This document shows, in pieces, positions 19,172-50,593 of a stretch of 64,000 nt of DNA (within the stretch, counting starts at the first letter, position 1; the number at the start of each line of letters is the position of its first letter). Below the pieces are notes generated by a model, which made no database searches, had not been told where the DNA came from, and saw only the letters and a list, made by a program, of their open reading frames with translations. Source of the stretch: Phycisphaerales bacterium (lineage in GTDB: Bacteria; Planctomycetota; Phycisphaerae; Phycisphaerales; SM1A02); NCBI GenBank assembly GCA_022446905.1, contig JAKVBT010000008.1:94748-158747 (forward strand), given 5' to 3'. A program made the translations under genes and the position numbers.

Positions 19172-19695
19172 TGCACATGCACCCACGTCACAGTAGTGAT
19201 CAACTCGTCTTTGCCACTATCCGGCTGCCAATACACATCAACCGATACCCGCACAGCTTCTGAAGTTCCATCGACTACGACAGTGGCGATGTTGGTTGGC
19301 TCCACTGATTCCACGGTCACAACTTGACGCCAGTTCTCCAAATGCGCAATCACCGATCGAGTGGAATCGAGAGGGCCGGTCCCAGCCCCAAACGACACGT
19401 CGAGGCCGTCAAAATCATCTAGATCGTCCCAGTCGGCCATACTGACTTCGCCTGGCTCAGGTCCCCAGGTTGCCGAACCTGTGACTGGATCCATAATTGG
19501 CAAAGACATTGTCATCTCACGAATCTCATTGCCGATACGCGCCGCGTCAGCGGCACGAGCACCCCAACGATTCTGTTGGTGGAAGGCCTCCTGTGCTGAA
19601 AGCATGGCCAACATGGCGGTTGCCAGAATGACGATCGCCAAGCCGGTTTCGACGAGCGTGAATGCACGGCGTGAGTTGCGAGCGATGTGAGTCAT
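19168..19695 (-). CDS. prepilin-type N-terminal domain protein (pseudopilin)
   Basis: RRA|FTLVETGLAIVILATAMLAML: Ala rather than Gly at -1, Glu at +5. ATGA overlap with gspF. Confidence 0.65.
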   Translation of the reverse strand: MTHIARNSRRAFTLVETGLAIVILATAMLAMLSAQEAFHQQNRWGARAADAARIGNEIREMTMSLPIMDPVTGSATWGPEPGEVSMADWDDLDDFDGLDVSFGAGTGPLDSTRSVIAHLENWRQVVTVESVEPTNIATVVVDGTSEAVRVSVDVYWQPDSGKDELITTVTWVHVQ

Positions 19696-23772: not shown

Positions 23773-25134
23773 TCATACAATCGCCTGATCGGCATCAACC
23801 ATCATAAACCTGATATGCGCTTCTGCGGCTTCCCGATCGCCGACATACGAACGGCAACGAATAGAGGCCGTGCGGGTGCTCGCCCGAATAGTCTCAGCCT
23901 CCAACACCAGTTGATCACCAGGCGTTACCGGATGGCGAAGTTTGACCTTGTCAAGGCTCAGCAGGACCGCGACTTTGCCTGTGTGTTCTAGGGTCTGACT
24001 CAAGAGCAAACCACCCAGCTGCGCCATCGCCTCCACAATCAACACCCCCGGCATGATCGGCGTCCCTGGATAGTGCCCGCTGAAGAATGGCTCGTTAATA
24101 GTGACATTCTTTACCCCGACGGCCTTCTTGTTGCCCTCCACGTGTACCACCCGATCAACGAGAAGCATGGGATAGCGATGCGGCATGATCTGCTGAATTG
24201 CCCGAATATCCATGGTGCGACCAGCATTCAGTTGGTCATTGCGACGCTGCAGCTCCGCCTGCGCCCGAATTTCCCGACACATGCGTCGATTGAGCACATG
24301 TCCGGATCGTGTCGCAACAAAGTGACCGCACACCGGTGCGCCGACCAACATCAAATCGCCGATCAAATCAAGAATCTTGTGTCGCACTGGCTCATTGCCG
24401 AATCGCCACTCATTGTCAATTGGCCCGTTTTCACCAATCACCAACGCTTCTGCTGGCGTAAGGTGGCTGCACAAACCGTGCTCCTGCAAAGACGCCGCTT
24501 CTTCCTCAAGGCTGAAGGTGCGTGCAGGGCCGATGTCGGCGAGATAACCCGATTCGCTCAATGTAAATGCGAATGCCTGTCTAGGGATTCGATCCGAATC
24601 ACTCCCATAATCCAGTTCATAAATGGCATGAAAAGATTCGCCGCCATTTGGAAATGCCGCAAGCATAGCACCGCCTTCTTCAAGAACAATGGGCTCTGTA
24701 ATAGCCACAACTTCCCGTGTGGCGTCTTGAACAGACACACCGGCTTGCTGGATCGCATCAATAAATGGCGCCGCACTGCCATCGCCGAGTGGCACTTCGG
24801 GACCAGTGACTGCTAACAGGGCATTGTCGATCCCACAGCCGCGAAGCGCCGATAGGCAATGCTCTACAGTTTCAATCACGACTTCGCCGTCACAAAGTAC
24901 CGTTCGGCGATCACGATCAACCGCATAATCAACGACTGCGGGAATGCGGACAGCAGGATTAAGGTCGGACCGCTCAAAGACAATTCCATGGCCTGGAGGC
25001 GCAGGTCGAATCTCGAGGTCAACCTCTGATCCGTGCATTAAACCGCGGCCACTAACCGTTGCTACATTCGCCACCGTCTGCTGGGACTCAGACAGTGCTG
25101 GTTCACTTTGACTTGTAGTGGCAACGTCATTCAT
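23773..25134 (-). CDS. lpxC/fabZ: bifunctional UDP-3-O-acyl-GlcNAc deacetylase / 3-hydroxyacyl-ACP dehydratase
   Basis: N-terminal LpxC (GRGLMHGSEV..., TVEHCLSAL, HKILDLIGDL) fused to C-terminal FabZ (PHRYPMLLVDRV, FFSGHYPGTPIMPGVLIVEAMAQ). Confidence 0.92.
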   Translation of the reverse strand: MNDVATTSQSEPALSESQQTVANVATVSGRGLMHGSEVDLEIRPAPPGHGIVFERSDLNPAVRIPAVVDYAVDRDRRTVLCDGEVVIETVEHCLSALRGCGIDNALLAVTGPEVPLGDGSAAPFIDAIQQAGVSVQDATREVVAITEPIVLEEGGAMLAAFPNGGESFHAIYELDYGSDSDRIPRQAFAFTLSESGYLADIGPARTFSLEEEAASLQEHGLCSHLTPAEALVIGENGPIDNEWRFGNEPVRHKILDLIGDLMLVGAPVCGHFVATRSGHVLNRRMCREIRAQAELQRRNDQLNAGRTMDIRAIQQIMPHRYPMLLVDRVVHVEGNKKAVGVKNVTINEPFFSGHYPGTPIMPGVLIVEAMAQLGGLLLSQTLEHTGKVAVLLSLDKVKLRHPVTPGDQLVLEAETIRASTRTASIRCRSYVGDREAAEAHIRFMMVDADQAIV

Positions 25135-27494: not shown

Positions 27495-29852
27495 TCAGAA
27501 TGGAAGGTCCGCCGAGAAACTGAACAACTGAGTCTGATCGAGATCCTGTTTGATAATCGGAAAACCAAAGTCAAAGGCCAATGGCGTCGGTCCAAGTTGC
27601 GGAATATACACCCGCACGCCGAGACCCACACTCACGCGATACTCATCAAAGCCCACAGCATCGTTGACCGTGCCTGAATCAACAAATATGACACCATCAA
27701 GCAACTCTCCCAGCAGCGGACGCTGATATTGAGCGCCAGCAAACATCATGAATGTGCCGCCAACTGGCACATCTGTTTGAACCCCTGCTGCTGTCAGGCC
27801 CTTCGGGGAAACGGTTCGAAACTGAAATCCTCGGAAACTCCGGCCGCCCAGATAAAACTGCTCATAGGTCGGCGATTCCCCTCCGAAGATGGTGCCAATC
27901 TGCCCATCGAGCCGCAAGGTTGTAGTACGGCCAAGGAAGTCGCGATCAAGCGCGAGATACGTCGTGTAGTCAATGGAGGCGCGATTGAAGGAGACATTTC
28001 CACCAACGGCTCCCCAGTTCGCCAGACTCAATTGCGTACGACTCCCGCGTGTCGGGCGATCCATACTGTCAATGGTTGTTCGGGTCAGGGTCATCCCAAG
28101 GGAGAGCAATGTGTCCGGCCCCCGATCATTCATGACTTCGACCGGTTCAACCCTGTTGAAATCACTCAACTCCACCTGCGAGGCATCAAAGCGAAATGAT
28201 ACGTACCACACATCGCCAAGCCGACGAGCCAAGGTAGTGCCTGCTGATGACCGCGCTTCTGTGTAGTTGTCATAGGTCCGGCGGAACACCCCCGCTGCTT
28301 GGCCCAACGCCCATGGCGTGCCGAAGATCTGAGGCTCAGTCAAACTGATGTCATACGCGAAGATCTCCGTGCCGGGCTGAAAGTTGATTGCAAACTTTTG
28401 TCCCGCACCGCGAAATCCACGACCCTTAATGAACTCCCCAAACGTCTCAGGGACATCGAAAATATCAAAGTTGTTTTGTGTCAGCGAGATGTTTCCGAGC
28501 ACACCGCTGTCCGATCCAAATCCGACACCAAAGTTGATTGAGCCAGTGTTTTGCTCCTTCACTTCAATCAACACATCACGAACACGCTCATCATTCGGAT
28601 CGGGTTCTTGAACTGTGACCCGAGCATCCTTAAACAAGCCAGAGCTCATGATCCGATCCTTCGTATCCTTGATCTCCCGGGCATCAAATCGTCGTCCAGG
28701 AACCAGGCCAACATTGACGCGAATGATCTTGTCCTTCGTCAGTGTGTTACCGGCAATGTTCACTAGGCCGACATCAGCCACTTCGCCCTCATCGATTTCG
28801 ACCAACAAGACCAATTCCGTACCGCGGCCCTGCCGAATCGGAGAGATGCTGACTCTGGCATCGAGATATCCCATAACGCCATAAGAGTCCCGAATTGAAT
28901 CCCTGGACTGATCGATCAGATTCTCCTTGAACACATCGCCGACCTTGATGTTCATGATTGCTGCCAGCTGTTCTTCGGAGAAGACCTCGATCGGGACACC
29001 GCCAATCCCATTAGCGCGAATCTCACCAACGGTATATCGCCGTCCTTCTTCAATCAGAAAGATGACCTTGGCTTGACGTTGACTTGGGCTGATTTCAATC
29101 TGCTTATCAACACGCACATCGATATAACCACGTCCATAGTAAAACCGGTGTAAGGCGGCTATGTCATTTGCAAGTTCGGCCTCATCAAGCTCACCACGCC
29201 TTAAGAAGGGAAACCATGTGGTCGTTTCAATTTCAGCCTGTAGTTCCTTGGTTGGAAAGGCCGTTGCCCCAACAAAGACGATCGATCGGATCCGCACGCG
29301 GGGACCTTCAATCACCTCAAAGATCAACACATTGTTGCTATCAAGCTCGGACTGATCAATAGAGACTTCCGCTAAGAAGTGCCCCTTTGCAAAGTACAAC
29401 TGCTCCATCTCTCGAATGCCGCGTTGGATGAGGAAGTCGTCGCGAGGGGATCCTCGGCGAAGACCCGTGGGCCCAAGTAAGGCATTGTCGCTCAGTAGGC
29501 TATTTCCGACGACATATACCGCTGCCAGCAACTGCTGCTCTTCAAACACATAGGTCAGCGCCACACTGCCGTCGGACTCGACGATTGCCTCAATATCAAT
29601 CGTGGAAAACTCGCCGAGTCGGGTCAGCCTTGAAATGTCGCCTCGTGCCGTGTCTGGGGCATATGGCTCACCAACCCGGCAGCGAATATTGTTGTAGACC
29701 ACCTGATCACTGACTCGCTTGAGGCCTTGCAGGGAAATCGACCCAATCGGACGATCCAATAACGTATCTCCATCCTGAGCAACTGCTGGCGTCCAATGGA
29801 CGATCGTCAGGAGGATGATCAAAACGGCGTTGGCAGTTCGAAAGAGGCCCAT
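27495..29852 (-). CDS. bamA: outer membrane protein assembly factor BamA
   Basis: Signal peptide MGLFRTANAVLIILLTIVHWTPAVAQ, POTRA-like repeats, and a C-terminal beta-barrel ending ...LFSFSADLPF. Start set at 29852, because the ORF extension to 30155 is Arg/His-rich and overlaps the divergent lpxD gene. Confidence 0.9.
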   Translation of the reverse strand: MGLFRTANAVLIILLTIVHWTPAVAQDGDTLLDRPIGSISLQGLKRVSDQVVYNNIRCRVGEPYAPDTARGDISRLTRLGEFSTIDIEAIVESDGSVALTYVFEEQQLLAAVYVVGNSLLSDNALLGPTGLRRGSPRDDFLIQRGIREMEQLYFAKGHFLAEVSIDQSELDSNNVLIFEVIEGPRVRIRSIVFVGATAFPTKELQAEIETTTWFPFLRRGELDEAELANDIAALHRFYYGRGYIDVRVDKQIEISPSQRQAKVIFLIEEGRRYTVGEIRANGIGGVPIEVFSEEQLAAIMNIKVGDVFKENLIDQSRDSIRDSYGVMGYLDARVSISPIRQGRGTELVLLVEIDEGEVADVGLVNIAGNTLTKDKIIRVNVGLVPGRRFDAREIKDTKDRIMSSGLFKDARVTVQEPDPNDERVRDVLIEVKEQNTGSINFGVGFGSDSGVLGNISLTQNNFDIFDVPETFGEFIKGRGFRGAGQKFAINFQPGTEIFAYDISLTEPQIFGTPWALGQAAGVFRRTYDNYTEARSSAGTTLARRLGDVWYVSFRFDASQVELSDFNRVEPVEVMNDRGPDTLLSLGMTLTRTTIDSMDRPTRGSRTQLSLANWGAVGGNVSFNRASIDYTTYLALDRDFLGRTTTLRLDGQIGTIFGGESPTYEQFYLGGRSFRGFQFRTVSPKGLTAAGVQTDVPVGGTFMMFAGAQYQRPLLGELLDGVIFVDSGTVNDAVGFDEYRVSVGLGVRVYIPQLGPTPLAFDFGFPIIKQDLDQTQLFSFSADLPF

Positions 29853-29947
29853 TCGGTATCGCGAGGATATCCGAGCCGGATGGTCGCTGCTTTCATCCGA
29901 CGAAGGTACCCTTCGCACATCGCCGTGACGGCTGGAGGCCTTGACCC

Positions 29948-30985
29948 ATGAGCATGACGCTGGCAAATCTCGCTCAACAGCTCGGCGCCGAACTGCATGG
30001 TGACCCGACGGCCATCGTTGAGCGCTGTCGTGGCATCGATGCAGCTGAAGCTGGAGATCTCGCCTTTCTCGCCAATGCCCGATATCGCGACCACTTGGAG
30101 TCGACTCAGGCCACGGCAGTCTTGATTGCCTCGGGCATTGAAGCCCCTGCCGCACTGAACTGCCTAGTCTGCGATGACCCTTACTTTGCGTTCAGAAATG
30201 CGGTGATTGAATTGCACGGCATGCGCCAGCATCCAGACCCCATGGATGCGGACGCCCGGGGCATCAGTGCCCGCGCTGCCATCCACCCCGATGCTGACAT
30301 TGGCGAGAACACCAGGATCCACCCATTTGCCACGGTCGAGCAAGGTGCGAGCATTGGACGTGGCTGTCACCTGTATCCCGGAGTCTGGATTGGCCCGAAC
30401 GCTGTCATTGGCGATGATTGCATTCTCTTTCCCAATAGTGTGGTACATGAACACTGCCTCCTCGGGGATCGAGTGACCCTCCATGCGGGCACTGTGATCG
30501 GCAACGATGGATTTGGCTACGCCACCCATGAGGGTGTACACCACAAGATTCCACAACATGGCATCGTGGTCCTCGAAGATGACGTCGAGATTGGTGGCAA
30601 CTGCGCCATCGAGCGTGCAGCAATGGGTGAAACCCGAATTGGCACAGGAAGCAAGTTTGCTGACCTCATATCGATCGGGCATGGAACCACGATGGGAGGC
30701 CATTGTCTGCTGGTCTCTTTGGTGGGCGTCGCGGGATCTGTAACCATGGGGCATCATGTCGTTCTAGGCGGGCAGACGGGTGTTGCTGGACACCTGACCA
30801 TGGGGGATGGGGTACAGGCACTGGCCCATACAGGTGTCGTAACAAACATCCCAAGCGGCCAGAAGATCGGTGGAGCCCCAGCCATTGATGCCGACACGGC
30901 CAAGCGCAATGCGATGGCCTCTGTGAATCTCGCAGAGTTGTTCCGTCGCGTAAAGCGGCTTGAAAGAACCGTGCAGAAGGATTGA
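29948..30985 (+). CDS. lpxD: UDP-3-O-acylglucosamine N-acyltransferase (paralog 2)
   Basis: LANLAQQLGAELHGD..., GNDGFGY, KIPQHGIVVLEDDVEIGGN, C-terminal helix LAELFRRVKRLE. Confidence 0.85.
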   Translation: MSMTLANLAQQLGAELHGDPTAIVERCRGIDAAEAGDLAFLANARYRDHLESTQATAVLIASGIEAPAALNCLVCDDPYFAFRNAVIELHGMRQHPDPMDADARGISARAAIHPDADIGENTRIHPFATVEQGASIGRGCHLYPGVWIGPNAVIGDDCILFPNSVVHEHCLLGDRVTLHAGTVIGNDGFGYATHEGVHHKIPQHGIVVLEDDVEIGGNCAIERAAMGETRIGTGSKFADLISIGHGTTMGGHCLLVSLVGVAGSVTMGHHVVLGGQTGVAGHLTMGDGVQALAHTGVVTNIPSGQKIGGAPAIDADTAKRNAMASVNLAELFRRVKRLERTVQKD

Positions 30986-34065: not shown

Positions 34066-36129
34066 TCACTCAGCTCCAGTCGCATCAGGGCACTTGAGGC
34101 GTGGATCGATCGCCTGCAATCGAGCACACTTCGCAGCAATCTGGTTTATGGGGGCCCCGGCGCGCAAAAGCACTGCCAATAATCGCTCATTGACCAACCT
34201 CCACCGCGCCGGATTATCTGTTCGTGGAAGCGATGCAAGCCGGCGGTAATCACGCGCCAGATCAGCAAGGGCTTCCCGATCACTTGAAGTCCAGAGGCAT
34301 TCGCAACGACCAAGAATCGCAGCTGGTAGATTTGGCCTCCGACTCAAAATCGAGTTGTACACAACCAATGCCTCATCACGACGACCACTACGGCTCAACG
34401 CTGACGCGAGTTGCAAATCTTCCTCCACATCACCGCCACCATCTGCTGAACTCATCGTGGCGGCCACCACTGAACAAAACGCTGGCTGATGCGACTCAAG
34501 CCACACCAACAATTCCCGCGCCTGAGCAGCACCCAATGTCTCAGCATGTTTCGCCAACGTGCTGTGATCTGATGAAAGGGCCAGAATTTTGGCGTCAACT
34601 AACGCCACGCATGCTGGAGTGCCAATCAGTACAGCCTTGTCATCTGTTCGCAATGCTCGAGCTTGATCGAGGTCCCCATCAACTAAGTGTTTCTCAATTC
34701 GCAGCATGGCCGCCCCTGCAGCTACCGCTGCAGCTCCTCGTCGGCCACGGCGATGCGCAATCAGGCCCTTGGCTCGCACTTCATCTAGCCGGTCGGCATC
34801 TGCCTCTGACATCTGGCCCAAGCGAAGACGTTCTTCAAGCAGGTACAAATTCAATTGCAAAGCATTGACATGCGATGGGCTGCGAGGAAGCACCTCAGCC
34901 AAGAGCTCCAGCGCCGTCTGGTTCTGGCCCTGTTCAACGGCCCGATGCGCCCGCCTAAGGATCCACTGCCCTGGGGATTCACCATGGGCCGATGCTCGGG
35001 CAAGCACCAAATCAACTAGTGCGGCATCCAGATCACGCTCTTCAATGGCCACGATCGCTGCCTTATCAAGCAACCGTGCACGCTGCTGAATAAGCCCCAT
35101 ACTCGCCGCTCGCAGCCAGTCTTGCACGGCTCCAGCTGAATCACCAACTGCTTTTCGCGCACTGGCTCGTGCATCAAGCAGCACCACCTTTTCGCGATCG
35201 CCGCGATCTTCAACTCTCGCCGCTTCAGCCATCAACAACGCGGCAGCTGCCTGACCACTGGCAACCAGCGCATCCATCCAGCCGGCCACGAGCGGCGAGG
35301 AGGTATCCAATGACACATCCCATGATTGAGTCGACATGCGTGTCGCGGTCGCACGCACGACGCTCTCCGGTGATGGGGATGTTGCCTCATCGCGGCGCAA
35401 TCTTTGCAGCCACGCGTCTGCGATCGCAGACGCGTGAGCGGATGTGCGCGATTGGGCCAAGCCAGCCTCTGCAATCAGCTGGACCTGCCAGGACGCCCCC
35501 GCTTGAGACAATTGCGCAACAGGAGCTGCTGACCACTCACGATCACGTGACAGGCCCCATTGCAGAATCTCCATCGCAGTCTGCTCTACTGGATCTGACA
35601 CAAGATGACTGGCCTTCAGCAGAGACAAAGCCGCCGCATCTTCTCCAAGCGCCTGGTGGACAGAGACGAGAAGGCGGCGAAGTCGTCCGGTCGCATCCGC
35701 GCCATCAGCCAACGCGTCTGACAGCAAGTCGGCCGACTCACGCAACTTGATGTAATCCTCATGCAACAAGCCGTAAGCAGCACAGGCCACGCCACGCCGC
35801 ATCTGCCACCGAGCAGAGGCCAGCGTGACAGGTTGACCAGACGCAGCCATATGTTGCAGGGTCAGATCTAAACGATCACTCACGGTGACCGCCTCATCCA
35901 AGATGGCCATCGCCATTTCGCGTCGCTGCGCATCTGGCAGCCCAAGCAAAGTGCCGTCAACGGACAGATGATGCGCCCAAGCTTCTCCGAGCAGCACATC
36001 CAACAAGCGAAGATCTGCCTCGACCTGTTCCAATTCCTCCACAGCTTCACGACAAGCGGCCCGACTTTGGTTCAACAGTTCCACTGGCAAACCAATAAGC
36101 ACACCACAAAGCAGCAGGCAGGAGATCAT
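34066..36129 (-). CDS. large helical-repeat (TPR-like) protein with an N-terminal membrane anchor/signal
   Basis: Ala/Leu-rich repeats throughout. Start MISCLLLCGVLIGLP at 36129 makes an ATGA overlap with the upstream exbD. The longest ORF starts at 36159. Confidence 0.5.
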   Translation of the reverse strand: MISCLLLCGVLIGLPVELLNQSRAACREAVEELEQVEADLRLLDVLLGEAWAHHLSVDGTLLGLPDAQRREMAMAILDEAVTVSDRLDLTLQHMAASGQPVTLASARWQMRRGVACAAYGLLHEDYIKLRESADLLSDALADGADATGRLRRLLVSVHQALGEDAAALSLLKASHLVSDPVEQTAMEILQWGLSRDREWSAAPVAQLSQAGASWQVQLIAEAGLAQSRTSAHASAIADAWLQRLRRDEATSPSPESVVRATATRMSTQSWDVSLDTSSPLVAGWMDALVASGQAAAALLMAEAARVEDRGDREKVVLLDARASARKAVGDSAGAVQDWLRAASMGLIQQRARLLDKAAIVAIEERDLDAALVDLVLARASAHGESPGQWILRRAHRAVEQGQNQTALELLAEVLPRSPSHVNALQLNLYLLEERLRLGQMSEADADRLDEVRAKGLIAHRRGRRGAAAVAAGAAMLRIEKHLVDGDLDQARALRTDDKAVLIGTPACVALVDAKILALSSDHSTLAKHAETLGAAQARELLVWLESHQPAFCSVVAATMSSADGGGDVEEDLQLASALSRSGRRDEALVVYNSILSRRPNLPAAILGRCECLWTSSDREALADLARDYRRLASLPRTDNPARWRLVNERLLAVLLRAGAPINQIAAKCARLQAIDPRLKCPDATGAE

Positions 36130-36584
36130 GATGGTGTCTCCAACGTCACATTGGTGCAACCAGCAGCGACTACCGCGTTAAAGGTGTCAATAACACGTTC
36201 CCAACTGACATCACTTGCTGGCTCGATGATGATGGGATGGTCTGAAAGAAACAGTTGCCCCCGTGGTTGCACTGACTCCGCAAGAAAGCGGCGGAGCCCC
36301 TCTGGCGTAGGCGACACAGTCCAAGGACCAACAACTTCGATACCACCTCCATAGCCCATTGATTCAAGACGGATCAGCAGTGGCTCGTCGATCAATGCCA
36401 ATGGGTCTGAAGAAGCCGCCTGCTGCTCTGGGAGATCTAAACGAAAGATCTCCTCAGCCGGGCTGAAATCGGTCGCCACCATGAAATAGATCAGCAACAA
36501 AAAGACAATGTCAATCATTGGAGCCATATGCAGGGTCAATCCCCCACTGCCCAAGCGGCGTCGCATACGCAGGTGCGGCCTCAT
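36126..36584 (-). CDS. exbD: biopolymer transporter ExbD/TolR family (copy 2)
   Basis: MRPHLRMRRRLGSGGLTLHMAPMIDIVFLLLIYFMV. ATGA overlap at 36581-36584 with copy 1. The longest ORF runs to 36692. Confidence 0.75.
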   Translation of the reverse strand: MRPHLRMRRRLGSGGLTLHMAPMIDIVFLLLIYFMVATDFSPAEEIFRLDLPEQQAASSDPLALIDEPLLIRLESMGYGGGIEVVGPWTVSPTPEGLRRFLAESVQPRGQLFLSDHPIIIEPASDVSWERVIDTFNAVVAAGCTNVTLETPS

Positions 36585-37030
36585 GAGGAGCGATCTCGCA
36601 TGGCCGCCAACTGCACATGTACTGGCCCAGACAACCCTGCTAACCGACCGGCGCGTCGCGCTGCATCCAACACTGGACCAACCTGAGACCAAGGTGTTGC
36701 TCGACCAGCCCGAATCTGAACAGCGATATCTGGATGCTTTCGAAGCAACACCGCAAGTGCCTTTTGAAGTTCAAGCACTGCATGATCCCCCTGCCATTGT
36801 CGGCCATCTAGTTTCAGCAGGAGATCTTGTTCGCCCATGATGTTGACAATCGCACGGGGTCCTGGCTCCGCTGTTCGAGAAGCCGCGGGGACAGGTGTGG
36901 GCAAATCCAGTCGCGGCCGATCTTCATCAACGATTCTCGACACAAGTACAAAGAAGACGATGAGCAGAAACACCACATCGATCAGTGGCGTCATGTCCGA
37001 GGCAATTCCATGGATACTCCGCCGCCGCAT
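36581..37030 (-). CDS. exbD: biopolymer transporter ExbD/TolR family (copy 1)
   Basis: MRRRSIHGIASDMTPLIDVVFLLIVFFVLV. Its ATG shares one base with the exbB stop codon (TGATG). Confidence 0.8.
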   Translation of the reverse strand: MRRRSIHGIASDMTPLIDVVFLLIVFFVLVSRIVDEDRPRLDLPTPVPAASRTAEPGPRAIVNIMGEQDLLLKLDGRQWQGDHAVLELQKALAVLLRKHPDIAVQIRAGRATPWSQVGPVLDAARRAGRLAGLSGPVHVQLAAMRDRSS

Positions 37031-37779
37031 CAGTGATCAGTGGCCTCTTCGAGCCTAGCCTTGCCAGGACGAAATCGTGACAGAAGATCTTCTGCAACGA
37101 GTGTTGCTTCGGCGGTCAGCGCATCGATCCGGCCCCGCAATAAGGCTGCTACAGCCAAGGATGGAATTGCGACTACCAACCCCCAGAAGGTGGTGGTCAA
37201 GGCCGTGCCGATACCTCCAGCCAACATCACCGGGTCCGCAGCACCTCCAGATGCGACAATTGCTGAGAAAGCCATGATCATGCCATACACGGTTCCAAAT
37301 AAGCCAATCATGGGGCTGACCTGGCCAATGATGTTGAGCACGTCGATTCGTCGCAGTCGAGAGACCGCATGTTCTTCGCTCGATTGCTCAAGGGTGCGCA
37401 GCACGGCATCCCAACCATGAGGGGACTGACGAAGCGCATCGGCCATAATTTGACCAAGAAAAGAATCACTGGCACTGGCCGATGCAATGGCTTGCTGAAA
37501 TTTTTTGGCTGCAATGTCTTTGCGAATGGACTCCGCAACCTCATCAGGCATGATCATCTCACGGCGATTCTGCATTGCCATGGAGATAGCCATCGCCATC
37601 GCAGTCATCGACAAAGCAAGCAAGAACCATGTCACTCCTGTGCCTAGCACTTCAATGTCGCCACTGGCATTTCGCGACACAAAAAAGGCCGATGCAAAAC
37701 TCCGGGCTTCTGCAGATACCGCCGCAGGAACGGCTGCTAGTTGGGTCATCCAAAACGCACTTCCACTAAACAGCATCAT
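37030..37779 (-). CDS. exbB: MotA/TolQ/ExbB proton-channel protein
   Basis: 3 TM segments and the conserved C-terminal core SPMIGLFGTVYGMIMAF...GIGTALTTTFWGLVVAIP. Confidence 0.85.
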   Translation of the reverse strand: MMLFSGSAFWMTQLAAVPAAVSAEARSFASAFFVSRNASGDIEVLGTGVTWFLLALSMTAMAMAISMAMQNRREMIMPDEVAESIRKDIAAKKFQQAIASASASDSFLGQIMADALRQSPHGWDAVLRTLEQSSEEHAVSRLRRIDVLNIIGQVSPMIGLFGTVYGMIMAFSAIVASGGAADPVMLAGGIGTALTTTFWGLVVAIPSLAVAALLRGRIDALTAEATLVAEDLLSRFRPGKARLEEATDH

Positions 37780-38699
37780 CGTTCAAGTTCCTCCAAAGTC
37801 ACGGTGCGCATGGAACCACCTCCATGCGTTGCGGCAATCGATTCCATCAACGGGGCAGGATCTTCGCCCCCACTGACCAGTCGGATGCACTCGATTCGGA
37901 CAGGCCGCGTCCCAGTGAGTGGATCCACTGGATTAAACTGGTCCAATGCCCGCATAACTACTGCACGGTCTACCTCCCAGTGCCCACGGCCATTCAGTCC
38001 TTCACTCATCAAAAGCACCAAGTCCGGCTTTAGTTGAATCGCCGCTTCCAAGGCCTGCCTTGGATCTGATCCTCGTCCTCGCTGCATGCGGCGACCTGCG
38101 TCACGACGAAGTGCCTTGGTCGCGGCAGTGACCGACGCAGCAGTGACATCTGTCAGACGTCTTGGAGTTGTTGCATGCACTGCATCACCCGCAAAATAGC
38201 GCACAGCAAAGCGCTGGTCCGGATGCATCGATGTCAAGGTCCGCTCAACCTCGTCGATGACAAAGGGAAGCCATGCAATCATGCTGCCGCTCGCGTCGAG
38301 CACAAACACGACGTCACGTGCAGCCCCCAACGGTGTCCCCGCAAAGGTGGCACTGGGTGGGGATTCAGGCATGGAACGGGTCTGCAGTGCCGGCGCCGAA
38401 ATCGGCGTGGGTGGCGGCAATGGCTCTAACGCAGGCATCGATGGCGGCGTTGGCGGCAATGAGCTTTCTTTCTGTATCGGCAGATCATAAAGAGGCACAA
38501 CTGGTGTCATCGTAATGATGTCCGAGGTCACCAATGGTGATGCCAATCGCTCATCTTCTGTCAGGATGGACCAGGTCACGATCAAGCCAAACGTAATCAC
38601 AATGGCATGAAACAGAATTGACAACGTCCATGGTCCCGCGCGGTGAACCAAGGTGCGAAGACGAACACGTGCCGGATTGGCGGCTCGGGACGACACCAC
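37776..38699 (-). CDS. TonB-like N-terminal anchor plus Pro-rich spacer fused to a von Willebrand factor A (VWA) domain
   Basis: GPWTLSILFHAIVITFGLIV (SxxxH), SLPPTPPSMPALEPLPPPTPISAPAL, and MIDAS VVFVLDASGSM. The ATG-initiated ORF extends to 38828 but would overlap the upstream doxX-like gene by 74 nt. In-frame GTG codons at 38699 and 38696 avoid this overlap. The start is uncertain. Confidence 0.7.
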   Translation of the reverse strand: MVSSRAANPARVRLRTLVHRAGPWTLSILFHAIVITFGLIVTWSILTEDERLASPLVTSDIITMTPVVPLYDLPIQKESSLPPTPPSMPALEPLPPPTPISAPALQTRSMPESPPSATFAGTPLGAARDVVFVLDASGSMIAWLPFVIDEVERTLTSMHPDQRFAVRYFAGDAVHATTPRRLTDVTAASVTAATKALRRDAGRRMQRGRGSDPRQALEAAIQLKPDLVLLMSEGLNGRGHWEVDRAVVMRALDQFNPVDPLTGTRPVRIECIRLVSGGEDPAPLMESIAATHGGGSMRTVTLEELER

Positions 38700-38754
38700 A
38701 AGCAGAGGATACGTCCGCCTCCGACCTGCGCGTCGCGTAGGCCCAAATGGCCGG

Positions 38755-39471
38755 TCAGTTCGTTGCAGCAAGCTCCGCTGTGGCGGCACCCTTGCTCGCC
38801 CGGTCTCGTGGCCAGAGCACACGATCAACCGCCAGTGGCCCTGGCCCGGTCAACAGAAGACCAAACGCCAGCACGCAGGACATGGCAAAGAACATCATCT
38901 GCTCAAAGGCTGCTCCTTGGGCGGCCCACTGGAACGGACTCATGTCAAACATGCCTGCGGCTTTGATGCTGGTGAGCCAAAAACTGGTGCCAAGCATGAT
39001 CAGCATCAACAGCGACCAGAATCTTGTCAAAAGCCCAATGAGCACCGCCACCCCACCGAGTAACTGGGCTACGGCCGCAGCCCATGCTGTCGGGCGAGAC
39101 CAGCCTTCAAAACCTGCTTTTCGCAATCGCAGTGCAATGGACATGGCTGCGGCTCGACGTGTCGCAGGGGAAGCAGTTGCTGACTCTGTAGGGGAAGTGA
39201 CAGTTTGGGACACCGCTGCCTTGGCTGCCTCATGAATAGACGCTGGTGAGGCTGAAGCATTAGCCGCCTCAGAGGCAGGAGCCGGATCCTCAGTCAGCAA
39301 GGCCACAGGGGTAGCGGCCACAGCATCTCCTTCGAGCATACGGATCTGCTCTGGCGTGAAATCAATCTGCTGAAAGCAGAGATGCCATCCGGAAAAAAAG
39401 AAGGCCGCCGCCAAGACCAGGCGGGATAGAAAGGGCATGAATGAGGTTCCAGCACATGTAGCAAGTGACAT
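38755..39471 (-). CDS. DoxX-family membrane protein with an internal Ala/Ser-rich linker
   Basis: MPFLSRLVLAAAFFFSGWH..., LLGGVAVLIGLLTRFWSLLMLIML, LTGPGPLAVD. Start at 39471 or 39438. The longest ORF (to 39630) runs into the tRNA gene and is rejected. Confidence 0.5.
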   Translation of the reverse strand: MSLATCAGTSFMPFLSRLVLAAAFFFSGWHLCFQQIDFTPEQIRMLEGDAVAATPVALLTEDPAPASEAANASASPASIHEAAKAAVSQTVTSPTESATASPATRRAAAMSIALRLRKAGFEGWSRPTAWAAAVAQLLGGVAVLIGLLTRFWSLLMLIMLGTSFWLTSIKAAGMFDMSPFQWAAQGAAFEQMMFFAMSCVLAFGLLLTGPGPLAVDRVLWPRDRASKGAATAELAATN

Positions 39472-39578: not shown

Positions 39579-39660
39579 GCGGGCGTGGCGGAATTGGCAG
39601 ACGCGCTGGTTTTAGGTACCAGTGGGGCAACCCGTGGAGGTTCGAGTCCTCCCGTCCGCA
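39579..39660 (+). tRNA. tRNA-Leu (anticodon UAG)
   Basis: Hand-folded. Acceptor stem GCGGGCG/CGTCCGC (one G-U pair); 3-bp D stem; anticodon stem CTGGT/ACCAG with loop TTTAGGT; long variable arm TGGGGCAACCCGT; T arm GGAGG-TTCGAGT-CCTCC; discriminator A. No encoded CCA. Confidence 0.9.
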
Positions 39661-43805: not shown

Positions 43806-43923
43806 ACTGCTATTCACCCCCCTTTGACGGGCCTGTTGAAGGTGGTTTTTTGTCCGCCGCAACATGCCTCAGACAGTAAACTCGTGCTGTTGGGGAGTTG
43901 GTGCTCAGAGCACTGTTATTCAA

Positions 43924-46900
43924 ATGCGTGTTGTCGGTATTTCCATCTCGCTTTTTGCCTTCAGTGCTGTGACCTTGGCTGGCGCGATGGGCCCGCCAAA
44001 GCCCAGCCCCAACCAGCACCCCGTCAAGATGCTGCAGCGGGACTCTGTCCTCCTCCCCGACCCTCTGGCCAGTTATCCATTGGAAGCAAATCTACTTGGC
44101 AGATCCGTCGCCGTTTTCCCCGAAGGTGTGGTTGGCGGCGCTCCGAAAGCTGCCGGCCTAGGTCTCTTTAGGGGCGGTGTCGACACATTCCGTTTCTTCA
44201 ACAACCAATGGCGTGAAGACTCAGTCCAAGCTACCAGTGGTGCCATCAACCGACTGATGGTGGGCAGTGCCGAACTCGATGTCGATCACATGTGGTTCGG
44301 CCAGTCCATGGACAGCACCGGCAACACGATTGCCATTGGAGCACCTGGAGCAACACTCCCGGACGCCTTGTTTGATGTCGCAGAAACACTCGAACCATGG
44401 TTATCCGCTGACCCCAGCCCAGATGTCAATGCGGGCGTCGTCGTCATTGCAGATCGCTCGGCAACGGGCTGGAGAATCCGCAGAACCATCAAACTGCTCG
44501 AAGACGAACCGCTCCTAGCCAATTCTTCGGATGTCATTCATGATCGTGCCGGGTGGCAATTCGGACATAGCGTAGCGCTAAGCAGTAGTCATTTGGCCGT
44601 TGGCGCCCCGTATGCCAGCGTGCGGCCTATCCCCGCTGCAGATGCTGACCCTGAAGTCGGCGCAGTGGTGATCTACAAGAGAGCGGGAAACAACTTTGAG
44701 ATACAGGACATTCTGACTCCTGAGGACCTCAGCACCAACCTCTGGCCGCATGATGCAAACCACTCAGAATTTTTCGGCTATAGCCTGGGATTATCTGGCG
44801 GGCTTTTAGCCATCGGCGCCCCAAATGCCGAACACGCTGCAGAGAATGCAAACCTAGACGCTGGCGCGACTCACATCTTTGAACTTCAGACTTCAGGTGG
44901 ATGGGCGCATGTTGCATCCTTGGAGCCACCAAGCACAGAACGTGATACCAATGGCTGGTTTGGCAAAGCGATTGCTATGAATGGCTTTGAAGTTCTTGTC
45001 GGACACCCCGGACATGATCGTCCGGTCCCCACAGCTGACCTCGGACGCGGACAAGCCTGGCTGCATGAACTCACCCAGATCGCGCCAGGCATCTATGCTT
45101 GGACTCAGGCCGAACAGTTTCCCCCATCCTCCGCAGATCAGCCATTTTTTGGTGCTGGATATGGCAGCACTGTTGATATATCAACGCAGCTAATCGGCAT
45201 CGGAGCACCTGGTGGCGACTGGATGGGCCAGTTCGTACCCAATGAAAAGGGATCTGCCTATTTCTGGCAACGCATTGCACCTGCTACTACATGGAATTGG
45301 TCTGAATCAATATCCCCTGGCCTTGCATCTGATCAGTGGGGAATCGCCGTGGCTGTCGACAATTTCAAGGCGGTCATCGGTGGTTGGTTGACCAATTTGA
45401 CTGGGCAAGTAGACAGCGGGCAGTTGTTGGTCTGGACACCACCGCCGACACCCCCACCTGGCTCAGCAGATGACTGCAATGGCAATGGTGTCTATGACCA
45501 GACTGAACTGCTCGCTGGCGGCGCTGACTGCAACGGCAACGGCATTCTTGACATTTGTGAGCTGTGCCCTCCTGGCAGCGTGTTGTGGTCACGCGATTGC
45601 ACTTACTGCGAAGATGAAATGAATGGGTTGGTCACACTCATCACCCCAGCACCAAATCAATCTGCATCCAATCACTTGTATCGCATCTTCGATGCCCGAC
45701 CTAGCGGTGAGACGTGGGATGAGGCGCGGCTCGCCGCATTGGATGCCGGACTGGGTGGCCGACTGGCAACGATCGACCTTGGTAATGACAGTGCCAGTGC
45801 TGCAGATGAAGCCGCAATTTTGAACCGGCTGAACTGGTCGCCAAACAACAATGGCACATTGTGGCTTGGCGGCCAGCAGATCGCGGCTGTGGCTGTTGAC
45901 GACACTTGGGGGTGGGATGAAGGTGGACAGTGGACATGGACCAACTGGGAAATAGGTCAACCGGATGACATCGACAACACCGAGAATGGGCAGCAAGACC
46001 ACCTCTTGGTGACCGGTGAACAATCAACCGGTTACTGGACATGGTCGGATGCTTCGCGAAACACCTTGGCAGACGGTCATGTTGTTGAATTCGACCCAGA
46101 TTGTGATTGCGATGCGCAGTTGGATGACTGCCAGATCACCCAAAATCCCAGTCTTGACTGCAATGTCAACGGTCGACTCGATCTGTGTGAAATCGAAGCA
46201 GACCCTGAACTTGACTGTAACGAAAATGGCATCATCGATGCCTGCGAGATCAACCAAGATCCTGGGCTTGACTGTGACGCCAGTGGCCGCCTCGACTCCT
46301 GCGAACTCGCGGATGCGGTATTGATCGACTGTAATAACAATGGAATTCCAGATATCTGTGAAGGGCTTCCTCCAGTGGTGTTCACGGAAATCCATGCGGA
46401 TCCTGCGCCAGGGGATGGAGGATTCACAGGGGACGTCTTTGACCCAGACAATGGTGATGCCAATGGCGACGGCGTTCGGCACCCGCTCGATGATGAATTC
46501 ATTGAGTTGCGCAATGTTTCTCCAGTTGCCATCAGCCTTGAAGATTGGACAATCACGATCGACGGAATTGTTCGGCATCAATTCGGCCCAATCACCCTCG
46601 CGCCAGGATGCTCCACATTGGTCTTCGGCGGCCCACAGCCTGATGCGGGCAGTGGCACACTGGAAATACGGTACGACGACGCCCCTGCAGCAGGAGCATG
46701 CTGCATTGAAGGCGTTTGTTCGCTGAGCCTTGAAGCAGACTGCGAGTCTGCTGGCGGCATCTATCAAGGCGATGGCAGTGTGTGTGACTGCCTCGACCCA
46801 TGCCTCCCAGATGGCCTTGGAGCCGACCTTTGTGAAGACGCCGAGGAAATCTGTGTCGGCCTGCACGAATTCTCTACGGAGACAGCAACCCCAAGCGACG

Positions 46901-48081
46901 TCTTTGTGAGCCCAGCGCTCTGTCCTGAAACTGAATTCAACTGGAGCGAGTGCACCCCAGATGTATGGTTCCGCTGGACAGCCCTGCAAACTGGACTGGT
47001 CGATATCACCACCTGCAGTTTGCTTCCTGAAGACACCTTTGACAGCCAGATCGTGATGTACCGTTGGGATGGCACGACACCAATATGTGACGGCCTGATC
47101 CCAATTGCCTGCAACGGCAACAGCACAGTCAACGATAGCAATCTCTGTTCTCCATTCGACGCCAGCATCACTGATGCATCGGTCAATGCTGGAGAGACTT
47201 ACTTCATCCGAATCGGCAGCACTGCACGAACAGTTGACCGCATCAACTGCGCTCCGGTTGAGGCCGCCTCATCTTGCAGTCTGCTGCTTGGATGTAATGG
47301 CACAGCAGAGCTTGCTGACGACAATGGACTGCCAATTGACTCGGTAACCTGGGACCCAAGTTTGGCCTGCTTCAATCAGAGCTTCCTGCGGTATCCGACA
47401 CACTGTGACACATGGATCTTGCACCGCGATGATCTCGATAGCAATCGCAACTGGTCCCCAGGGGCCAACTGGAATGGAACTGCTTGGTGCGTCTGCTTTG
47501 TTGACGACGATAATGACGGCATTGACGATTCAATAGACAACTGCATCTACCCCAATCCGAATCAGGCGGACTGCAACGGAGACGGCATCGGCGATGTGTG
47601 CGAGGTGATTGATTTCGTCAATGACGGTGGTTTGCTTGAGGACATCGATTGCAACTTCGATCTCACTCCCGACACTTGCCAGATCTCCGATATCACTGAC
47701 TGTGATGGCGACGGCGTGCTCGACACCTGCCAGATTGCTGCTGATTTCACCCTCGATTGCAATGCCAACGGCATTCTTGACAGTTGCGACATTGCCTCGG
47801 GCTTGGCTCGCGACTGCAATCTGAATCTGATCCCGGACTGGTGCGACATCAACCTCTACAACACCTCAGACGATCTCAACGGCGATGGGATCCCTGATGA
47901 ATGCAACTTTAATCCAGAGTGTGATCTCGACAACAATGGTGTAATCGACATTCAGGATTTCCTAACGCTCTTGAGTGACTGGGGCTGCACCGGGCAACCC
48001 GGTGTTTGCGTGGGTGATTTCAACGGCGATGGGGTAGTCGACATCCAAGACTTCCTCGACTACACCTCCTCCTGCAGCTGA
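43924..48081 (+). CDS. giant secreted multidomain surface protein: FG-GAP propeller, C-type-lectin-like domain, lamin-tail domain, Cys-repeat modules, TSP3-like repeat, C-terminal dockerin-like domain
   Basis: Signal peptide MRVVGISISLFAFSAVTLAGA. Six or more FGxS...IGAP repeats. A lectin-like block (WDEARLAAL...LWLGG...WTWTNWEIGQPD...WTWSD). A lamin-tail domain (VVFTEIHADP...EFIELRNVSPVAISLEDWTI). DCNxNGxxDxCE repeats. DDDNDGIDDSIDNC. A C-terminal pair DLDNNGVIDIQDF / DFNGDGVVDIQDF. The longest ORF starts at 43864. Confidence 0.75.
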   Translation: MRVVGISISLFAFSAVTLAGAMGPPKPSPNQHPVKMLQRDSVLLPDPLASYPLEANLLGRSVAVFPEGVVGGAPKAAGLGLFRGGVDTFRFFNNQWREDSVQATSGAINRLMVGSAELDVDHMWFGQSMDSTGNTIAIGAPGATLPDALFDVAETLEPWLSADPSPDVNAGVVVIADRSATGWRIRRTIKLLEDEPLLANSSDVIHDRAGWQFGHSVALSSSHLAVGAPYASVRPIPAADADPEVGAVVIYKRAGNNFEIQDILTPEDLSTNLWPHDANHSEFFGYSLGLSGGLLAIGAPNAEHAAENANLDAGATHIFELQTSGGWAHVASLEPPSTERDTNGWFGKAIAMNGFEVLVGHPGHDRPVPTADLGRGQAWLHELTQIAPGIYAWTQAEQFPPSSADQPFFGAGYGSTVDISTQLIGIGAPGGDWMGQFVPNEKGSAYFWQRIAPATTWNWSESISPGLASDQWGIAVAVDNFKAVIGGWLTNLTGQVDSGQLLVWTPPPTPPPGSADDCNGNGVYDQTELLAGGADCNGNGILDICELCPPGSVLWSRDCTYCEDEMNGLVTLITPAPNQSASNHLYRIFDARPSGETWDEARLAALDAGLGGRLATIDLGNDSASAADEAAILNRLNWSPNNNGTLWLGGQQIAAVAVDDTWGWDEGGQWTWTNWEIGQPDDIDNTENGQQDHLLVTGEQSTGYWTWSDASRNTLADGHVVEFDPDCDCDAQLDDCQITQNPSLDCNVNGRLDLCEIEADPELDCNENGIIDACEINQDPGLDCDASGRLDSCELADAVLIDCNNNGIPDICEGLPPVVFTEIHADPAPGDGGFTGDVFDPDNGDANGDGVRHPLDDEFIELRNVSPVAISLEDWTITIDGIVRHQFGPITLAPGCSTLVFGGPQPDAGSGTLEIRYDDAPAAGACCIEGVCSLSLEADCESAGGIYQGDGSVCDCLDPCLPDGLGADLCEDAEEICVGLHEFSTETATPSDVFVSPALCPETEFNWSECTPDVWFRWTALQTGLVDITTCSLLPEDTFDSQIVMYRWDGTTPICDGLIPIACNGNSTVNDSNLCSPFDASITDASVNAGETYFIRIGSTARTVDRINCAPVEAASSCSLLLGCNGTAELADDNGLPIDSVTWDPSLACFNQSFLRYPTHCDTWILHRDDLDSNRNWSPGANWNGTAWCVCFVDDDNDGIDDSIDNCIYPNPNQADCNGDGIGDVCEVIDFVNDGGLLEDIDCNFDLTPDTCQISDITDCDGDGVLDTCQIAADFTLDCNANGILDSCDIASGLARDCNLNLIPDWCDINLYNTSDDLNGDGIPDECNFNPECDLDNNGVIDIQDFLTLLSDWGCTGQPGVCVGDFNGDGVVDIQDFLDYTSSCS

Positions 48082-49168: not shown

Positions 49169-50593
49169 ATGCTCATGCTTCAGGTCACACACGGCCCCGA
49201 CCGTGGTCACCTACTGCCACTGCCGCCGGACGAACCACAACTGATCGGTCGTTCGAGCGAGGCCCTTCCATTGACTGATCGCCGCATCAGCCGCCGACAC
49301 GCCGAATTGATGCCGCACGGGCAAGACTGGCTGATTCGTGATTTGCAATCATCCAATGGGACGTGGCTTAATGGTGTGCGGCTCTCAGGTACTGCCACCA
49401 TGAAATTGGCAGATGTCGTCAAATGCGGTGATACTCGATTGCAACTGGTTGAGCGTGATGACATCCCCGCGGGCCCAGCATCAGCAGAGTTATTGATTGG
49501 GCATCGATCTCTACCGCCGACGGTTCTCCCGAACAATGCTGATGATGCGGCCCGTGTATTAGCCATGATCTGGTCGCTCACGGCCATGGCCGATACGACA
49601 GACGAGATTGACCCCGCCACATGCCAGCAGTTAATCGCCCAAGGAATCGGCGCCTGCGAAACAGTGAAATCAAGTGCCGACGATCCTCTCTTGATTCGAC
49701 TTCACTGCGAACAAGGCACAGAACCCCAATTGCTGCAATTCTGGCCTGCTCAAGGCATGTGGCAACCATGGCAGCGAGCATCCGCTGATCTCGCAGGCTG
49801 GCTTGTGAACTCATTCATGGAAGCTCGACGTGTACGTGAACGAGATCGACTTGCGGCCATGGGGCGGACGGTCGCGGTCATTAGTCATGCCGTCAAGAAC
49901 ATGCTGCAAGGTCTTCAAGGAGGCGCTGGAGCCTTGGAGATGGCACTGAACAGAGGCGATCTAGATCTGGCACGCGAAGCCTGGCCAATTCTCCAGCGCA
50001 ATCTAGATCGCATCCACGACCTCACATTCAATATGCTCGCATGGTCACGGACCAGTCATCTGGAAATTGAAATGGGCTCACTCCATACGCTCATGCGCGA
50101 TATAGAGCAGTCAATCCAACAGACATTCCAACAGAGAAGGGTGACCTTGGAAATCTGTCCACAGGCAGATGGTGATGTTCCTTTTGATGCTGGAGCGCTC
50201 CACCAAGCAGTCCTCAATCTCTTGCTCAACAGCCTTGAGGCGGCCCCCCCACGGCGAGGCTTGGTTCGCTTCAAAGCCACAATTGATCATTCCGCACAAA
50301 TGGCACATCTGACGGTCAGTGACAATGGCGAAGGCATCGACCCAGCCCACCACGCAACCATTTTCGAACCCTTTGCGTCGACGCGCGGACAGCGTGGAAC
50401 CGGATTAGGCCTGGCGGTGACCAGACGGATCGCAGCTGCCCATGGTGGGCGAGTCACGGTGGAATCCACCCCGGGCGCGGGTGCCTCGTTCACCATCAGT
50501 CTTCCACTGCAGGCCGCAGCAGGTGATCCCGGCGATACGGACATCCCCCCCATGTCCAGATCAGCCGATCCTGACGCCTTCGAACCGGCGTAG
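49169..50593 (+). CDS. FHA-domain-containing sensor histidine kinase
   Basis: N-terminal FHA (LIGRSSEALPLTDRRISRRHAEL...IRDLQSSNGTWLNG). H-box AVISHAVKNMLQGL, N-box LNLLLNSLEA, G1 DNGEGI, G2 GTGLGLAV. Confidence 0.8.
   Translation: MLMLQVTHGPDRGHLLPLPPDEPQLIGRSSEALPLTDRRISRRHAELMPHGQDWLIRDLQSSNGTWLNGVRLSGTATMKLADVVKCGDTRLQLVERDDIPAGPASAELLIGHRSLPPTVLPNNADDAARVLAMIWSLTAMADTTDEIDPATCQQLIAQGIGACETVKSSADDPLLIRLHCEQGTEPQLLQFWPAQGMWQPWQRASADLAGWLVNSFMEARRVRERDRLAAMGRTVAVISHAVKNMLQGLQGGAGALEMALNRGDLDLAREAWPILQRNLDRIHDLTFNMLAWSRTSHLEIEMGSLHTLMRDIEQSIQQTFQQRRVTLEICPQADGDVPFDAGALHQAVLNLLLNSLEAAPPRRGLVRFKATIDHSAQMAHLTVSDNGEGIDPAHHATIFEPFASTRGQRGTGLGLAVTRRIAAAHGGRVTVESTPGAGASFTISLPLQAAAGDPGDTDIPPMSRSADPDAFEPA

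Follow-up and report, generated by a model that had tools for sequence, protein, structure and literature searches.

A Phycisphaerales locus joining ExbB/ExbD-type motor genes to a putative TonB/TolA-like force transducer with a von Willebrand A output domain

For a long time, TonB and TolA were, to our knowledge, the only monomeric proteins known to relay the proton-motive force (PMF) to the outer membrane from a motor of the ExbB/TolQ type. The closest described counterparts of the system considered here are the ‘vWA force transducers’, which were defined by computation only and whose first class combines an SHLS helix, a disordered region that harbors a ‘motor box’, a domain II of ~100 residues, and a von Willebrand A (VWA) fold that replaces the C-terminal domain of TolA and TonB (Williams-Jones et al., 2025; Mol Biol Evol 42:msaf138, PMC12204202). 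Here, we analyze a stretch of 64,000 nucleotides from a Phycisphaerales bacterium (assembly GCA_022446905.1, contig JAKVBT010000008.1, positions 94,748 to 158,747; hereafter the window), in which a gene on the reverse strand encodes a protein with a Ser-x3-His (SxxxH) membrane anchor, a Pro-rich linker and a C-terminal VWA domain, and is directly followed by one exbB and two exbD genes. This locus is a new member of the published, experimentally uncharacterized class of vWA force transducers.

As reported for the previously described systems, vWA transducers occur in Proteobacteria, Planctomycetes, Verrucomicrobia, Bacteroidetes and Rhodothermaeota, and those of the Planctomycetes-Verrucomicrobia-Chlamydiae (PVC) group adjoin tolQ, two heterologous tolR genes and a gene for a tetratricopeptide repeat (TPR) protein (Williams-Jones et al., 2025). 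AlphaFold 3 complexes place their conserved His at the site of the motor that binds TonB and TolA, for which the SxxxH motif is the established ExbB/TolQ-binding signature. A second published class comprises trans-pore-helix vWA proteins, which carry a TolR-like proton-binding Asp, have no SHLS motif and have no tolR or exbD gene nearby. The window shares with the force transducers of the first class the Ser/His helix, the Pro-rich disordered linker with a short conserved motif that may be strand-like, and the VWA end, as well as the tolQ-like, two tolR-like and TPR-type neighbors and the occurrence in Planctomycetes and the PVC group. The order of the genes is different, being vwa-exbB-exbD-exbD-tpr in the window, whereas in the published loci the vWA gene lies downstream of the TPR and motor genes. 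Compared on its helix, linker, VWA fold and synteny, the locus fits the SHLS class. An earlier interpretation of the window from its letters alone (the sequence-only reading) had held that this architecture is not known as a characterized system; this stands, yet the architecture had already been published computationally with the same interpretation (Williams-Jones et al., 2025).

The transducer gene occupies 37776..38699 on the reverse strand and encodes 307 residues from a GTG start; all residue numbers below refer to this protein. The maximal open reading frame (ORF) reaches a TTG at 38828 and thereby runs into the end of the gene upstream (38755), and it was this longer frame, 37776-38828, that the sequence-only reading had taken as the gene. 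The ORF itself is real, and every peptide feature that had been quoted from it (HRAGPWTLSILFHAIVITFGLIV, the Pro-rich tract, VVFVLDASGSM, and LLMSEG with its Glu) is present exactly as cited, but its 5′ end was probably misplaced. We take the start to be the GTG at 38699 because the deposited protein (P0001, MK077_06725, 307 residues) is identical to the translation from this codon and because seven close homologs start at or after the corresponding position in their alignment, making 37776-38699 the probable gene. A profile built from the family recovers a single copy in the window (E 3e-99, at this gene), 125 relatives in a word-indexed collection and, in an exhaustive search of a library of representatives, 3357 clusters at E<=1e-3, of which 896 remain at E<=1e-10 and 99 at E<=1e-30. 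The gene is both real and conserved. The column counts given below, and the AlphaFold 2 (AF2) model of the protein, are based on an alignment (A2) of 65 non-redundant relatives.

The protein begins with a confidently modeled helix (residues 9-49; predicted local distance difference test, pLDDT, 95-98) that contains a transmembrane anchor at residues about 22-46 (38562..38636, reverse strand). Within it, Ser27 (codon 38619-38621, reverse strand) is kept in 60 of 62 and His31 (codon 38607-38609, reverse strand) in 64 of 65 relatives, in the context of a consensus P-W-x-(V/I)-S-x3-H that is followed by a (T)W at positions 42-43 (Trp43 in 49/65, Thr42 in 37/65). More broadly, an SxxxH motif lies within the hydrophobic anchor of 227 of 260 fetched family proteins, the remainder being apparently for the most part N-terminally truncated or partial, and an acidic residue is found in the helix of just 3 out of 213 family proteins, with none in that of the window protein. 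When the family profile is aligned by hhalign with Escherichia coli TonB (the sequence used is 99.2% identical to E. coli records), the PW..S...H block falls in register with FPWPTLLSVCIH (S16/H20), without reaching significance. A phmmer search with E. coli TonB detected no match among the ORFs of the window. A second match to PW..S...H, at 53002-53382, was rejected, as it sits in an out-of-frame, spurious ORF. The helix of the window protein is preceded by five Lys/Arg and no Asp/Glu and followed by one Lys/Arg and four Asp/Glu, and the N-terminal flank is the more positive one in 158 of 213 family proteins. By the positive-inside rule, this charge distribution sets the C-terminus outside the cytoplasm (N-in, C-out), so that the linker and VWA domain are predicted to be periplasmic, as the sequence-only reading had supposed, and a cytoplasmic location of the VWA domain was rejected.

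The anchor is followed by a linker (residues 50-117; 38349..38552, reverse strand) that has 18 Pro in 68 residues (26%) and no secondary structure in the AF2 model (pLDDT 55-71); linkers across the family have a median length of 84 residues and 14% Pro. Fully extended, that of the window protein would measure roughly 20 nm. Directly after the helix is a conserved short motif, SPLVTSDI (residues 54-61; 38517..38540, reverse strand), whose family consensus is S-P-(V/L)-V-T-(A/S)-D-(F/I) (P55 in 35/65; V57 in 37/65, with Ile in 17 more; D60 in 30/65, with Glu in 10 more) and which resembles the PISVTMV of TonB in position and character. While the monomer model shows no strand here, the motif is, by analogy with the motor-box concept of the published class (Williams-Jones et al., 2025), a candidate ‘motor box’, that is, a putative ExbD-binding strand.

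The C-terminal domain (residues 118-307; 37779..38348, reverse strand) is identified as a VWA domain by profile, structure prediction and Foldseek. The AF2 model (mean pLDDT 85.7) folds these residues into a compact α/β domain of six β/α units with pLDDT >90. Although the single sequence gives Pfam VWA matches below the curated cut-offs (E 0.004-0.02) and nothing useful in NCBIfam, the family profile retrieves the VWA domain of ITIH4 from the PDB (E 7e-12), and the top Foldseek matches in the PDB are all VWA domains, with ITIH1 the best (E 2.5e-9 over about 190 aligned columns) and those of CaV α2δ, TFIIH p44/Ssl1, CMG2/ANTXR, factor B and integrin I domains among the others. The VWA assignment of the sequence-only reading is therefore significant at the level of both family profile and fold. 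The DxSxS of the putative metal-ion-dependent adhesion site (MIDAS), D135-A-S137-G-S139 at 38283-38297 on the reverse strand, is near-invariant (D135 65/65, S137 64/65, S139 65/65); the position where the MIDAS Thr is expected is held by Ser211 (Ser in 53/65, Thr in 4), and that of the expected Asp by Glu233 (Glu in 24, Asp in 13, Thr in 11 and Ser in 7 relatives). Neither TonB_N nor TonB_C (PF03544/TIGR01352) nor a TolA domain matches the transducer in Pfam or NCBIfam at E<=1, and the AF2 model shows only the VWA fold after the linker, in agreement with the earlier claim that TonB_C is missing.

The downstream genes, all on the reverse strand, encode an ExbB/TolQ-like proton-channel subunit of 249 residues (37030..37779; Pfam MotA_ExbB, E 2.6e-25), two ExbD/TolR-like subunits, ExbD1 with 149 residues (36581..37030; Pfam ExbD, E 2e-14) and ExbD2 with 152 residues (36126..36584; Pfam ExbD, E 3.6e-16), and a probably exported, apparently all-helical, weakly TPR-like protein of 687 residues (34066..36129); the MotA_ExbB and ExbD scores exceed the Pfam cut-offs. 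The start of exbB overlaps the stop of the transducer gene by 4 nucleotides (ATGA), and the three succeeding junctions overlap as well: TGATG before exbD1, ATGA where the ATG of exbD2 overlaps the exbD1 stop, and ATGA between exbD2 and the helical gene. The overlaps at all four stop/start junctions of this five-gene run indicate that it is translationally coupled. A scan of the operon for promoters and terminators returned sites no more frequently than did shuffled sequence. The ExbB homolog is as good a match to E. coli TolQ as to E. coli ExbB, and the two Thr residues that line the pore are retained in its alignment to the GLFGTV and ALxxT of TolQ, and the transmembrane Asp is kept in ExbD1 (TPLIDVVF, aligned to D25 of E. 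coli ExbD) and ExbD2 (APMIDIVF, aligned to D23 of E. coli TolR). Judged by these alignments, the ExbB and both ExbD homologs retain the residues that a proton-driven 5:2 motor requires. The 33% identity between the two ExbD paralogs is low enough to suggest that they form a heterodimer.

To examine how widely this arrangement holds, we assembled 25 genomic contexts, namely the window, seven loci from exact-protein look-up, sixteen from a scan of species-representative genomes and one from a further look-up, and scored the neighboring genes with phmmer and jackhmmer (loci are designated by L and proteins by P). The genome scan, which used the pattern [FY][VL][IVL]DASGSM, recovered at least 24 loci, eight of them coding for generic VWA proteins, and is not a census. 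An exbB-exbD-exbD set follows the VWA gene in 20 of the 24 evaluable contexts, which span Phycisphaerales, Phycisphaera mikurensis (L005) and metagenome-assembled genomes labeled Isosphaeraceae and Planctomycetia. At L005, L007 and L011 the linkage is kept even though the genes on either side bear no relation to those flanking it in the window. The survey of VWA-exbBD co-occurrence that the sequence-only reading had called for thus reveals conserved linkage. No family member from Kiritimatiellota or Verrucomicrobia was present among the matches listed in the genome scan. The order ExbD1-then-ExbD2 holds in 18 of the 20 linked loci, L009 and L020 being labeled differently. The motifs of transmembrane helices 2 and 3 are nearly invariant among the linked ExbB homologs (GLFGTVYGM and GIGTAL(T/V)TTFWGLVVAIP), and all 20 of these have a Thr, within GI(G/S)TAL (GIGTAL in the window), at the position of E173 in E. 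coli TolQ and E176 in ExbB. Tandem VWA paralogs precede a single exbB-exbD-exbD set at two loci (two at L005:7001-9179; two detected and a third gene of similar size at L011:7001-10378), as in the Tichowtungia aerotolerans seed locus of the published class, which has two transducers (Williams-Jones et al., 2025).

Set beside TonB, the window protein has the same N-in helix with S-x3-H, a P-x-x-V-T-like stretch, a Pro-rich spacer and an exbB/exbD operon, and differs in having a transducer without TonB_C, two ExbD paralogs in place of one, and Gly or Ala in place of the SHLS Leu (position H+7). In a scan of ten large ORFs of the window, none matched a TonB-dependent receptor family, and two (16820-19186 and 57019-58941, both reverse strand, 788 and 640 residues) have no Pfam match at E<=1e-5; within that scope, the scan agrees with the earlier statement that the window lacks such a receptor. 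With TolA and the Tol-Pal system the locus shares the SHLS-type anchor, motor subunits that match TolQ/TolR as well as they do ExbB/ExbD, and a TPR-type protein in the same operon, like CpoB in tol-pal; it differs in that the transducer does not match TolA domain III and that Pfam and NCBIfam scans of the operon genes turned up neither tolB nor pal. The Agl-Glt gliding machinery of Myxococcus likewise combines a TolQR/ExbBD-type motor, TonB-like transducers and a VWA/MIDAS protein in a single system that spans the envelope and transmits force. In that system, the TonB-like GltG and GltJ carry TonB_C-like domains and the VWA adhesin CglB is a separate outer-membrane lipoprotein, whereas here the VWA domain is the C-terminal domain of the transducer itself; no Glt homolog was identified in the operon.

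The 687-residue helical protein offers a clue to what the VWA domain may hold. It has only weak TPR matches in Pfam, is identical to P0264 and has just two homologs in the word index; by inspection, it and its positional equivalents downstream of exbD2 mostly have Sec-like signal peptides. In several lineages, the anchor, linker and VWA domain are fused to a helical extension of 500-600 residues in one polypeptide, as in L022 (852 residues; L022:6686-9241, forward strand), P0176 (953 residues), P0190 (932 residues) and P0262 of L036 (954 residues; L036:8001-10865, forward strand). A single phmmer pass connects the L022 extension with the separate protein downstream of exbD2 in L018 (E 5e-9), and iterated searches from the same extension reach the proteins of L024, L019, L013 and L014, while the other extensions reach subsets of these targets only on iteration; the protein of the window, in turn, reaches those of L001, L025, L014 and L013 in iterated searches. 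By the Rosetta-stone logic, such fusions are an argument for the VWA domain acting as one unit with the helical-repeat protein. For the window protein itself, these profile searches make the tie to the fused extensions suggestive.

In light of the above, we consider it likely that the protein is a periplasmic force transducer analogous to TonB and TolA, with a VWA (MIDAS) output domain instead of TonB_C or TolA_C. The sequence-only reading had proposed a PMF-energized, periplasm-spanning VWA protein, and the profile, topology and linkage analyses which it named support this without contradiction, motor coupling and force transduction being what we infer. In mechanistic terms, the Ser/His face of the helix would dock on the outside of an ExbB pentamer enclosing the ExbD1/ExbD2 heterodimer, the SP(V/L)VT(A/S)D stretch after the helix would serve as the ‘motor box’ strand gripped by the periplasmic domains of ExbD, and the Pro-rich linker would span the periplasm. 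Proton flow would then pull on the linker and exert force on whatever the VWA metal site holds. As some lineages fuse the two, the direct partner of the VWA domain would most likely be the co-encoded helical-repeat protein, which may in turn contact a target in the outer membrane or cell wall. As to its physiological output, the system could tether the outer membrane in a phylum that lacks Pal, drive uptake through that membrane, or act in surface adhesion or in motility.

Several observations weigh against this interpretation. With respect to the SHLS motif of TonB and TolA, only the Ser and His are strictly kept, with Gly or Ala rather than Leu at H+7, as noted above, and Thr at H+11 in 37/65 (57%). 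The hhalign alignment of the anchor with E. coli TonB, despite its register, is not significant (probability 1.9%, 15 columns), so that motor binding is argued from motif and synteny; as far as the sequences go, the likeness of the anchor to TonB is one of motif and not demonstrated homology. The fifth MIDAS position is variable, with Glu or Asp in only 37/65. On the side of the proposed partner, the AF2 model of the 687-residue protein, which is all-helical, derives from a two-sequence alignment and is unreliable (pLDDT 49.9), and its link to the fused extensions is transitive, passing through iterated profiles of repeat-rich proteins. According to the prior work, no deletion phenotypes have been reported for vWA transducers (Williams-Jones et al., 2025). 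Finally, four loci (L022, L023, L026 and L036) combine a gene for a DoxX-family membrane protein with one for an SxxxH-VWA protein and have no exbBD within 7-8 kb. These loci make DoxX the tightest partner of the family, and its role is unexplained by the transducer model.

In the window, this DoxX-family gene (38755..39471, reverse strand; 238 residues counted from Met54 of its ORF; Pfam DoxX 28.1 bits against a cut-off of 23.6 bits) lies 55 nucleotides upstream of the transducer gene. The sequence-only reading had called the latter the first gene of the ExbB-ExbD operon: while exbB does follow directly, the transducer gene is not necessarily the first, given the conserved DoxX gene before it on the same strand. 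In 23 of the 25 contexts (the window, L001, L003, L004, L007, L009, L012-L027 and L036), DoxX immediately precedes the VWA gene, and an alignment of these DoxX proteins reveals a long, variable, low-complexity loop, rich in acidic residues, Pro and Ala, after the first hydrophobic segment. As a side observation, a tRNA-Leu gene (anticodon TAG) is present at 39579-39660 on the forward strand; translated on one strand or the other, it gives a false 5′ extension to the DoxX ORF (to 39630) and to a DAHP synthase ORF (from 39622). Several related loci have the resulting ‘GLEPPR...NPARLPVPPRP’ pseudo-peptide before DoxX as well, indicating that the adjacency of the tRNA and doxX is conserved.

One may thus ask whether the conserved unit is instead made up of DoxX, the anchored VWA protein and the helical-repeat protein, with the helix packing on DoxX or another membrane partner rather than on ExbB, and with ExbBD as an accessory or shared component. 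The counts lend themselves to this proposal, with DoxX upstream in 23/25 contexts as against exbBD downstream in 20/24, and so does L036, where the DoxX gene overlaps the fused VWA-helical gene by 4 nucleotides with no exbBD within 8 kb, L022, L023 and L026 being similar. We nevertheless judge it unlikely: L005 of P. mikurensis and L011 have VWA genes with exbB-exbD-exbD and no DoxX, and the SxxxH motif is the signature by which TonB and TolA bind ExbB/TolQ. Moreover, motors can be encoded in trans, as is the case for many tonB genes.

It is likewise improbable, in our estimate, that the protein is an ordinary membrane-anchored VWA protein, whether of the BatA/BatB kind or a generic periplasmic protein for adhesion or scaffolding, that merely lies beside ExbBD and whose SxxxH has no motor function. 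The weak VWA matches of the single sequence in Pfam, the lack of significance of the anchor’s similarity to TonB, and the four related loci without adjacent exbBD would be in keeping with such a protein. Yet Ser and His are ~97% conserved within a hydrophobic helix that is otherwise variable, the gene shares a stop/start overlap with exbB, and the linkage persists across orders with different flanks. BatA and BatB have an N-terminal anchor followed by VWA and have TPR proteins in their operon, which also includes MoxR ATPase and DUF58 genes but no ExbBD, and their anchors are without SxxxH. The window cluster, in contrast, shares the anchor, VWA domain and TPR-type neighbor but has ExbBD and SxxxH, and Pfam and NCBIfam searches found neither MoxR nor DUF58 in its six genes; a Bat operon was rejected on this ground.

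The two remaining alternatives are scarcely credible. A helix that crosses the pore of the TolQ pentamer in the manner of TolR, as in the second published class, would account for the same VWA domain on one helix beside a tolQ-like gene (Williams-Jones et al., 2025), but it is already contradicted by the sequence in that acidic residues are virtually absent from the helix (3/213 in the family), the S/H motif is present, unlike in that class, and two bona fide exbD genes with their Asp are adjacent. For a divergent true TonB or TolA with a misread C-terminal domain, the SxxxH anchor, Pro-rich spacer and exbBD operon would be expected, yet the probability is very small as there is no TonB_C or TolA_C match, DxSxS is invariant, and the confident AF2 model with Foldseek top matches that are all VWA refutes it at the level of the fold.

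Returning to the force-transducer interpretation, a bolder extension, which we regard as doubtful, is that DoxX, the Ser/His VWA transducer, the Thr-type ExbB, ExbD1/ExbD2 and the helical-repeat protein constitute a six-part envelope machine specific to Planctomycetota, in which, as suggested by the natural fusions, the metal site of the VWA domain stays docked to the helical-repeat protein at all times and which replaces Tol-Pal and/or TonB functions missing from most of the phylum. Were this so, the machine could tether or remodel the outer membrane by proton flow, or take macromolecules up into the enlarged periplasm without a receptor, and 5:2-motor systems would have in DoxX an obligatory subunit not recognized before. 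Speth et al. (2012; PMC3422733) could detect canonical TonB in no more than four of the planctomycete genomes in their survey, and the supplement of PMC12204202 reports no pal in Planctomycetes; on account of these two absences, one might speculate that the system is the main energized link between the inner and outer membranes of Planctomycetota. More generally, VWA as a third output domain, next to those of TonB and TolA, would make the motor-plus-anchor module a general power take-off.

The locus adds to the published class a clear, conserved example with three testable details, namely the DoxX partner, the VWA-helical fusions that point to a ligand, and the substitution in the ExbB signature. 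The main text of PMC12204202 contains neither the term ‘DoxX’ nor ‘MIDAS’, and the sections of it that we read mention neither the VWA-helical-repeat fusions nor the Thr at the ExbB E176 position. A homologous cluster is carried by the cultured P. mikurensis, where it is open to experiment.

Beyond this operon, the window, which has about 55% G+C, encodes an LpxC-FabZ fusion protein (23773-25134, reverse strand) and a BamA homolog with four detected POTRA matches (27495-30155, reverse strand), which indicate that the host is a diderm with lipopolysaccharide. At 43864-48081 on the forward strand is a gene for a 1405-residue protein that is rich in Cys/Asp repeats and ends in dockerin-like DxDGDG repeats; its homolog in L001 has FG-GAP and LTD matches, and it is syntenic with the operon in close relatives only. 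Further along the same strand, at 49169-50593, is a gene for a protein with an N-terminal FHA domain and a C-terminal HATPase_c (histidine-kinase-type ATPase) domain.

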